Positions 1-686 of a stretch of DNA of 64,000 bases are shown piece by piece. The stretch comes from a virus. The stretch lies in the IMG/VR virus record IMGVR_UViG_3300045988_134109, positions 1-64,000 of that record; one strand, 5' to 3'. The position numbers and the translations under genes are program-made. How positions within the stretch are numbered: the first letter of the stretch is position 1; each line of letters opens with the position of its first letter. The notes under the pieces are model-generated. The model was not told where the DNA came from. It saw nothing but the letters and a program-made list of their open reading frames with translations, and searched no databases.

Positions 1-104
1 TCCCATCAACAAAATTCAACCTCCAATCAACAAAATTCAACCTCCCATCAACAAAATTCAACCTCCCACCAACAAAATTCAACTTCCCACCAACAAAATT
101 CAAC
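1..104. repeat. tandem direct repeat, 21-bp unit CAACAAAATTCAACCTCCCAT, about 4.7 copies; array probably continues upstream of the window
   Basis: read directly: units at 7-27, 28-48, 49-69, 70-90 and a partial unit at 91-104, with 1-2 mismatches per unit. Confidence 0.9.
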
Positions 105-107
105 AGA

Positions 108-276
108 TCAGAGCTTTAAAACGGCATTTTGTAGTTTCTTCCCACAAAATTAAGACAGTGCTTTAAAACAGCATAATGTGGATTATTCCCACAAAATCAA
201 GTATAATAGGAGCTTAAAACAGCATTACATAGGTTCCTTCCAACAGATTAAGGGTTAAGGACTGCATTATGTGAGT
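108..276. repeat. three degenerate ~50-bp direct repeats (GCTTTAAAACRGCATWWTGTRG...TTCCCACAAAATYAAG), related to the 21-bp unit
   Basis: units at about 111-157, 158-208 and 209-261 plus a partial unit at 262-276; each carries a CCCACAAAAT core resembling the upstream 21-mer. Confidence 0.7.
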
Positions 277-309
277 ATTTTTTTAAGAGGAATGTTTAAC
301 AATTAAAAT

Positions 310-579
310 ATGGATGGTATGAACGTATATGATTTTGCACCCGATTTAGATTTGAGTAAAGAAGTAGAAGGTTCTATTTTTGGGGTGAAAGGAATAGAAG
401 GCAGTGATGGTATAGTATATGCTAAGGTAGTTAGCTGTGTAGACGTCAAGGATTACAGTTGTGAGAGATGTATTTTTTATGATTGTTATAAGGATAAATG
501 TTTGTTATGGGGTAGTGATAGTTATGTAGATAGAGATTGGATTTGTAGGTACGAACAGGCTGCCATAGAGGGGGAGTAG
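310..579 (+). CDS. hypothetical Cys-rich small protein (89 aa)
   Basis: ATG ORF, first gene after the repeat region; contains CxxC-type cysteine pairs (C..DYSCERCIFYDCYKDKC). Confidence 0.5.
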   Translation: MDGMNVYDFAPDLDLSKEVEGSIFGVKGIEGSDGIVYAKVVSCVDVKDYSCERCIFYDCYKDKCLLWGSDSYVDRDWICRYEQAAIEGE

Positions 580-686
580 GCGGCGCCTTGGGTTAAGGCC
601 TGCGGTTGTAGGTAGGGCGTAGGTCGGAGCAGAGCCGGAACAGTTTATTGTGGAACGTGAAAAGAACAGATAAAAAAGGAGGAGAT

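Follow-up and report, generated by a model that had tools for sequence, protein, structure and literature searches.

A hypervariable tandem-repeat array upstream of an early-type gene block as a candidate control element in epsilon crAss-like phages

What might be the role of a block of direct repeats that precedes the same small gene in many related phages and has been rebuilt over and over in their different lineages? The question is raised by the first 277 nucleotides of a viral sequence from IMG/VR (record IMGVR_UViG_3300045988_134109, positions 1 to 64,000; this entire 64,000-nt stretch is referred to as the window), where an array of short tandem units and longer modules lies in front of a plus-strand gene, gene 1. 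Judging from its sequence we regard the array as a candidate control element that is probably bound by a protein. More specifically, we favor the view that it is a hypermutable cis-regulatory array of binding sites tuning the first early-type operon of the phage, to which we assign a probability of roughly 0.38. Tandem arrays of binding sites in phage control regions are already known, and the present one is undescribed. It is unusual in that independent expansions share a core and differ in period, and in its pairing with a second array of mirrored composition around the predicted genome terminus.

By sequence comparison the window originates from an uncultured epsilon crAss-like phage of the gut. 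Its first 3 kb are 91% identical to "csAssE-Sib" (crAssE-Sib; OR575929.1, 151,256 bp, human gut), the reference genome in this analysis, which has been placed among the epsilon crAss-like phages, a group without cultured members (PMC11054128). The gene content of the window agrees with this assignment: it begins with small genes that lack annotation and continues, on the plus strand up to ~34 kb, with genes of the helicase, exonuclease and primase type, beyond which giant virion proteins and a tail lysozyme are encoded on the minus strand. The report on the reference genome discusses repeats only with respect to its diversity-generating retroelement cassette (PMC11054128). A search of IMG/VR for gene 1 yielded 171 encoding stretches, 80 of which were compared (labelled L001 and so forth); 55 of these retrieved loci span the repeat interval, and 25 end inside it. 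The only epsilon genome in the GenBank phage set is crAssE-Sib itself.

At 1-104, Tandem Repeats Finder identified a 21-bp unit (TCCCATCAACAAAATTCAACC) present in 5.0 copies (95% matches, score 180), by far the strongest tandem repeat of the window. A search for the 21-mer with at most three mismatches gave five matches, all of them in 1-105, and none in 100 shuffled sequences, so that the repeats reported in a preliminary description of this DNA are real. A further repeat search retrieved three 46-nt copies at 109-154, 156-201 and 207-252, spaced by 47 and 51 nt. Comparison with the relatives provided a corrected register of units and modules, in which the features are as follows.

1-86, plus strand: tandem array of box-A-only units at 3-23, 24-44, 45-65 and 66-86, consensus CCATCAACAAAATTCAACCTC (from Tandem Repeats Finder, a pattern search and the relatives)
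87-137, plus strand: module M0, box A at 87-104 (CCACCAACAAAATTCAAC), spacer, box B at 113-134 (GCTTTAAAACGGCATTTTGTAG)
138-184, plus strand: module M1, box A CTTCCCACAAAATTAAG, box B GCTTTAAAACAGCATAATGTGG
185-236, plus strand: module M2, box A ATTCCCACAAAATCAAG, box B AGCTTAAAACAGCATTACATAGG
237-277, plus strand: module M3, the degenerate last module, CTTCCAACAGATTAAGGGTTAAGGACTGCATTATGTGAGTA, in the form seen in the window's group of relatives
278-284, plus strand: poly-T run, 7 T in the window
285-318, plus strand: leader and translation-initiation region, AATGTTTAACAATTAAAA, almost invariant in the alignment columns
310-579, plus strand: open reading frame (ORF) of gene 1, a small Cys-rich protein with no assigned function, conserved start ATG 319

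Bases 1-2 are the tail of a unit that was cut by the edge of the window and contig, and the position of M3 is occupied by a better-preserved module in other groups of relatives. The preliminary description had counted nearly five 21-bp units at 1-104 and three units of ~50 bp. The repeats stand, but the fifth 21-mer is box A of the first full module, and in the register of the relatives there are four modules at 87-277. Likewise, the ORF at 310 does head a long block of small genes on the same strand directly behind the array, but the start common to the homologs is ATG 319, giving a product MNVYDF... The suggestion that the array extends past the start of the window is very likely correct, given that 25 of the 80 loci are cut within the interval and that intact relatives are bounded by a conserved G-rich flank (ending in GGAGAGGGGGAGAGGGAGGGCAC) that the window lacks.

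Each module of ~50 bp consists of a box A (CCAACAAAATTCAA, YYCCNACAAAATTMAN), a spacer of 6-10 nt and a box B (GYTTTAAAACAGYATTNTRTAGG). Box A is a 14-nt motif, CAACAAAATTCAAC, with two YCAAC pentamers 10 bp apart, while box B is partly palindromic, with GTTTTAAAAC as the short core of the module in many relatives. The modules have an AT-rich composition with TTTTAAAA stretches. In the array of the window the pentamers are found at positions 6, 16, 27, 37, 48, 58, 69, 79, 90 and 100. Their spacing alternates between 10 and 11 bp and would thus place all copies on one side of the helix, and this bears out the iteron-like geometry, with direct 21-bp repeats, that had been described. Neither box A nor box B occurs beyond the locus in the 151-kb reference genome or in the 64-kb window. 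A dimer pattern of the 21-bp unit was absent from 185,579 bacterial and archaeal species genomes, and in IMG/VR it retrieved 31 stretches, mostly contigs of ~76-154 kb, several of them already in the gene 1 set.

Among the relatives the locus behaves as a variable-number repeat, with 65 distinct alleles in ~80 sequences. The repeat interval measures 153-455 bp in the 55 spanning loci, and an allele holds 1-8 full modules. Box-A-only units number from 0 to 10 or more and are found only at the 5' edge, next to the G-rich flank, which itself varies in length. Their period depends on the lineage (15, 17, 19, 20, 21, 22 or 27-29 bp); examples of 21-bp unit types are CTACCAACAAAATTCAACTCC and TAACCAACAAAATTCAATAGA, examples of 22-bp types ATACCAACAAAATTCAATAGAT and CTACCAACAAAATTCACACTCC, and in some lineages whole modules of ~50 bp have been expanded as well. 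Compared at the sequence level, the unit types are independent expansions with different boundaries, and nearly all of them keep CCAACAAAATTCA. The two closest relatives by gene 1 (98% identity) illustrate how fast the array turns over, since short units are lacking altogether in L003, whereas L004 carries seven of 22 bp that belong to a different type.

What is preserved in this turnover is box A. Within arrays, differences from the consensus affect 26 of 342 linker cells versus 6 of 672 core cells (Fisher p = 3e-8), in a count of cells rather than mutational events and with a register anchored on the core, so that the 14-nt core is ~8-fold less variable than the linkers. In the oldest-looking array, that of L166, five of seven linker columns vary versus two of 14 core columns. 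Such low variation argues for constraint on the core. Conserved are the 14-nt core of box A and at least one to two full modules, which makes a function as a binding site plausible. As far as sequence comparison can tell, the motif behaves as a functional site would: unique in the genome, conserved amid turnover and repeatedly amplified.

The region between the last module and the ATG is almost invariant among relatives, and this leader ties the array region to gene 1. The poly-T run in front of it, a second tract of variable length, has 7-11 nt (mode 9), and part of this variation could be sequencing or assembly error. Two terminator-like hairpins upstream end the preceding transcription unit, and no terminator-like site was found between these hairpins or the small ORF there and gene 1, so that the array is probably co-transcribed with gene 1. 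In the reference genome, the array is internal to a co-oriented arm of ~58 kb that extends ~17 kb upstream and ~40 kb downstream of the record junction, and it marks the point of this arm where annotated replication genes give way to ~45 genes that are for the most part small and without annotation. Farther upstream on the same strand are genes for nucleotide metabolism and replication as well as tRNAs. The assembly of crAssE-Sib was described as "pseudo-circular", with its start set by PhageTerm at p = 1.5e-22 (PMC11054128). In window orientation the record end, and with it the published PhageTerm start, is located ~640 bp upstream of the repeat region, outside the array.

In the mechanism that we propose, box A and probably also the partly palindromic box B would bind a protein, either on the DNA or on an unstructured transcript. 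Slippage or unequal exchange would change the number of sites, and this number would set the strength of expression of the early operon, in the manner of a 'tuning knob' or contingency locus. The region would be a natural place of engagement for an injected virion RNA polymerase or for a factor controlling it, because crAss-like phages express their early genes from one end by means of such a polymerase. We favor this regulatory reading because the invariant leader ties the array to gene 1, because the array follows the terminators of the previous unit with none in between, because a second length-variable tract, the poly-T run, accompanies it, and because no more than a few hundred bp separate it from the predicted genome end, in a family with early expression from one end. 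The freedom with which the period changes, in addition, argues against a strictly phased nucleoprotein machine.

Precedents exist for both parts of this proposal. Bacterial contingency loci use repeats or homopolymers upstream of a gene to tune its expression, as in the TAAA tract of Neisseria nadA. The present locus resembles them in its hypermutable repeat number and variable poly-T run before one gene, with alleles that differ between near-identical genomes; it differs from them in its long units of 15-22 bp, in which a conserved site takes the place of simple sequence, and an effect on expression is in this case only proposed. Clusters of early promoters at the leading genome end are known from T7 (A1-A3) and N4 (P1-P3). 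For the virion RNA polymerase of P23-45, AT-rich promoters next to the left end have been described (bioRxiv 10.1101/2022.12.01.518664), that of phi14:2 transcribes early genes, and crAss001 has its early genes at one end of a linear genome (PMC8375218). A virion RNA polymerase related to phi14:2 gp66 has been reported for crAssE-Sib (PMC11054128). The array shares with the early promoters of T7, N4 and P23-45 that its elements are in tandem, a few hundred bp from a predicted end and before small genes on the same strand, in a phage with a virion RNA polymerase. Unlike these promoters it has no sigma-70 or Bacteroides consensus and no N4-type hairpin, and its motif is not reused at early gaps.

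Several observations weigh against the regulatory reading. Box-A-only units are missing from 38 of the 55 spanning loci, the GenBank reference included, and only 17 carry them (1-8 units), so that the extra units are dispensable; the conservation among relatives that the preliminary description had looked for in the 21-mer is not found, as period and copy number differ by lineage. The count of cells in a core-anchored register, given above for the core-versus-linker test, calls for caution in the same sense. No host-type promoter could be assigned to the modules on the plus strand, where a sigma-70 scan yielded one 9/12 site, within chance expectation, and the Bacteroides -7 motif TAnnTTTG was absent from 1-310, with good candidates elsewhere upstream. 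Read on the minus strand, a single box A gives TAATTTTG, without a properly spaced -33 element. The lack of a host-type promoter on the plus strand does leave room for a non-host polymerase or for read-through transcription. A promoter for an N4-type virion RNA polymerase was rejected as well, since neither the modules (minimum free energy, MFE, -0.2 to -4.3 kcal/mol; z-scores -1.0 to +1.4) nor the array (predicted single-strand MFE 0 on both strands) form a stable hairpin. Box A is absent from the other intergenic gaps of the early block, which argues against a general early promoter, and dispersed motif copies acting as promoters are ruled out by their absence from the 151 kb of the reference. 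The early transcripts of phi14:2 have no common upstream motif, and no tandem array precedes the early operon of crAss001, a crAss-like phage that is in culture and for which transcript data exist. The label 'early' itself is drawn from gene size, gene order and analogy. A candidate for the binding protein did not emerge from the neighbourhood: gene 1 and the 179-aa ORF upstream have no match in Pfam or PHROG, and their AlphaFold models, with predicted local distance difference test (pLDDT) scores of 53 and 44, respectively, are too poor for fold searches.

The array is accompanied by a second hypervariable array 2.8 kb upstream (L017 1-100, corresponding to L087 3408-3526; OR575929.1 2059-2177). 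It comprises 2-9 units of 27-31 bp (ATGTGATGRGAGAGATATGAGAAAGAGGTTT) and is wedged between a strong terminator, which it follows directly, and a conserved G/C-rich tract on its downstream side; upstream of it, gene content is not the same from genome to genome. On the plus strand this second array is free of C, in runs of 119-123 nt, and the array studied here is free of G. Positions 1-105 are the longest G-free run of the window (105 nt, 33% C; at most 68 nt in shuffled sequences). The inner side of each array adjoins a G/C-rich homopurine or homopyrimidine tract. An inverted homology between the two was rejected, with an alignment score of 16 that falls below the shuffle mean of 17.7. In the upstream flank of the studied array (L017 ~2640-2820), the length of the polypurine tract varies through duplications of the (GGGAGA) type. 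Within this region of ~180 nt, pairing of the G-rich flank with a CU-rich stretch 150 nt farther upstream is possible, with weak covariation of two compensatory pairs only. The sequence GGTAGGGCGTRGG appears twice in the upstream flank and once after gene 1 (window 611-623).

The inter-array segment (L017 100-2820) includes the PhageTerm start, a small membrane-protein ORF, two terminator-like hairpins and long G+C-rich non-coding stretches, together with a stretch of 80% AT. Among all 200-nt windows of the genome, the one that ranks second in AT content lies between the two arrays. Of the genome's ten TGATWATCA palindromes, four are in this segment (OR575929.1 1813, 1924, 1951 and 151028; L017 ~190-350 and ~2400). 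Three of them fall in the AT-rich stretch near a Bacteroides-type promoter candidate and the fourth lies farther along, and the cluster may represent operators of a phage repressor. Two exact copies of the 18-bp sequence ATTGGTCTAAAACGAAAC, 74 bp apart, are found beside the PhageTerm start (OR575929.1 151142-151159 and 151216-151233; L001 24-41 and 98-115), each followed by a terminator-like hairpin. A more far-reaching form of the regulatory reading, which we consider improbable, would take both arrays and their flanks to bracket the true terminal or control region. In that case the virion RNA polymerase would enter at the box A/box B modules, located ~0.65-0.85 kb from the end, to start early transcription there, and changes in copy number would adjust the onset of infection or a carrier state.

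Among the explanations that compete with a regulatory array, the one that survives best, although we hold it to be unlikely, is an origin of the iteron type or a maintenance site like those of plasmids. The repeats would be bound by an initiator or a centromere-binding protein, which would open the DNA with the help of the AT-rich modules or pair copies, in lytic replication or in an episomal carrier state. Known iterons are the 7 x 22 bp of the R6K gamma origin, the 4 x 19 bp of the lambda origin and those of P1 oriR/incA. The present units share with them a head-to-tail arrangement of ~two-turn repeats (21-22 bp) with pentamer half-sites one helical turn apart, uniqueness in the genome and AT-rich DNA alongside, here that of the modules. 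At least three direct repeats of ~17-22 bp are indeed present, with 4-5 units in the window and up to 10 in relatives. Their number and spacing are however not conserved among close relatives: strains that are nearly identical differ in copy number (0 to 10 or more) and in period (15-29 bp), unlike in phased initiator origins, and the extra units are missing from most strains. In favor of a maintenance site, sopC-like centromeres tolerate changes in copy number. The sopC site of the F plasmid has 12 x 43 bp with an inverted repeat in each, to which the tandem modules of ~50 bp with their short, partly palindromic core bear some resemblance. In contrast to sopC, no genes of the ParA/ParB or SopA/SopB type were found near the array, and an episomal state of epsilon crAss-like phages would be hypothetical; the absence of the array from the 185,579 species genomes gives no sign of resident episomes or prophages. 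For the prototypical crAssphage a phage-plasmid lifestyle has been proposed, along with two origins at the start of the replication strand, ~2.6 kb from each other (PMC10983915), a distance comparable to the 2.8 kb between the two arrays, and the AT-rich 200-nt window and four of the ten TGATWATCA palindromes lie between these.

The surroundings do little to strengthen the case for an origin. The GC skew turns at 17.4 kb and 110 kb of the reference record, where gene orientation switches (the array lies ~18 kb from the upstream switch and ~34 kb from the downstream one), and not at 150.5 kb, where a switch at the array would have to be. No cluster of DnaA boxes was seen near the array. No Rep, ParA/ParB, initiator or terminase gene was identified next to it, either in the reference annotation of the flanking 10 kb or in Pfam and PHROG scans, although remote homology is possible and the structure models are poor. 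The annotated neighbours in the reference are hypothetical proteins only, and replication genes begin ~14 kb downstream. Of the origin, partition, packaging and operator roles that the preliminary description had entertained, the origin is thus the most weakened, as the array is not conserved in close relatives and both the skew switch and the predicted terminus lie elsewhere. By the skew it is no more than weakened, because skew tracks gene orientation.

Somewhat less probable still is a role in genome termini or packaging, in which the arrays flank a concatemer junction or terminal region and act as terminase sites, end-processing sites or boundary repeats. Short-repeat arrays are said to flank the terminal repeat of T7 DNA, in work of Dunn and Studier from 1983. 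The two arrays described here are similar in that they bracket a region with a predicted terminus, but they are 2.8 kb apart, unrelated in sequence and hypervariable, and terminal repeats of this phage would be hypothetical. The PhageTerm start does fall between them, ~640 bp from the studied array and beside the two 18-bp copies, and the mirrored G-free and C-free composition with inner homopurine or homopyrimidine tracts would suit paired boundaries. Long direct terminal repeats have been reported for crAss001 (PMC10136315). Nevertheless, the predicted start is outside the array, where the preliminary description had considered a pac or cos site. This terminus is known from a single PhageTerm run by others, and the putative small and large terminase genes are located at 20.1-23.2 kb of the record, ~20 kb from the array.

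The distribution of contig ends also speaks against a terminus. In several contigs that are near-complete (142-154 kb), both ends lie in the array and overlap by 34-42 bp, as expected of circular assemblies that were broken at a repeat, and this is what they are. Contigs break at the second array too, and their ends cluster at both arrays and not at the PhageTerm site. In Logan/ENA, many clusters of the 179-aa protein encoded between the arrays, with thousands of member sequences, have a longest contig of only 2.7-2.8 kb, which shows that the inter-array segment assembles alone. It emerges as a contig of its own, ~2.75-2.8 kb long, from very many samples.

A neutral minisatellite would require no function of the units at all. 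The 21-bp array would be a by-product of slippage beside a structure-prone polypurine tract, and the conserved modules may still matter. We consider this improbable, in spite of a copy-number polymorphism between close genomes that is characteristic of minisatellites. The numerous alleles without short units, the rapid turnover seen in L003 and L004 and the lack of any second occurrence of the window's allele in searches of IMG/VR and JGI metagenome contigs all fit such an origin. So does the position of the array, which always begins at the junction with a G-rich tract that is variable in length and complementary to CTCCC linkers. It is the content of the units that does not fit, since nearly all independent expansions contain the whole 14-nt core, and older, diverged arrays keep it while their linkers drift.

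Least probable of all, in our estimate, is an element acting purely at the RNA level, a G-free, CA-rich transcript that serves as a loading platform (a Rho site insulating the early genes, a ribosome standby site or S1 enhancer in a host without Shine-Dalgarno sequences, or a sponge for an RNA-binding protein): the 105-nt G-free run, its predicted lack of structure, a flexible period that suits single-strand binding better than one face of a duplex and the probable transcription of the array from the small ORF onward are in line with it, but half of the independent unit types (L004, L029, L051, L025 and L042) have a G in the linker, the array is ~200 nt upstream of the start codon, and a Rho site has no need of a conserved A-rich core.

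Some other identities were excluded outright. The array is not coding sequence, as repeat periods of 17, 19, 20 and 22 bp are not divisible by three. Nor is it a CRISPR array (clustered regularly interspaced short palindromic repeats), in agreement with the preliminary description, since the units are contiguous and lack spacers. Transfer RNAs and known RNA families were ruled out, with no tRNA found and no Rfam hit at the gathering threshold in the window, and no Rfam hit at E <= 1 in the homologous region of L017. Note that a 40-aa hypothetical protein is annotated across the G-rich flank and the first module (L001 588-710; OR575929.1 150547-150669, WOZ57410.1), and that this annotation is probably spurious.

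A number of further features were recorded in and behind gene 1. The longest C-free run of the window, 95 nt at 457-551, is inside the coding sequence of gene 1. After an ORF for a tiny membrane peptide (688-767), a hairpin AACGCTCCCGTCTGCGAAGATCGGAGCGTT followed by TTTGCTTTAT at 811-850 resembles an intrinsic terminator, and its stem shows compensatory changes in relatives (ACGC/GCGT, ATGC/GCAT and GTGC/GCAC). A tRNA-like minihelix, with a T arm GTCGG-TTCGATT-CCGGC and a possible acceptor stem of 7 bp, is found at ~845-895 of the window and also at ~1650-1670 of L017; it was called by neither ARAGORN nor Rfam. The annotation of the reference genome includes a Ro60-related protein and a CCA-adding/poly(A) polymerase, which makes a Y-RNA-like transcript conceivable for the minihelix. 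The ORF at 847-1263 probably has its real start near 922, as the gene of the relatives encodes 115 aa. Farther downstream, a 396-aa ORF at 31488-32678 matches PHROG 506 (transposase); genes of the TnpB type have been described for the epsilon crAss-like group (PMC11054128).

Epsilon crAss-like phages are abundant in human gut samples and barely annotated, and of the candidates for a cis-acting control element in these phages the array is so far the most concrete. It explains a systematic artefact of assembly and completeness, and calls of completeness for epsilon crAss-like genomes by 'direct terminal repeat' may rest on the array itself. The diversity of its alleles offers a possible strain marker. 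Being short and well defined, the array is an experimental target for studies of early transcription, replication or packaging. If the modules were indeed the entry site of the virion RNA polymerase, they would provide the first sequence handle on initiation by the virion RNA polymerases of crAss-type phages, for which a promoter motif has not been found so far.

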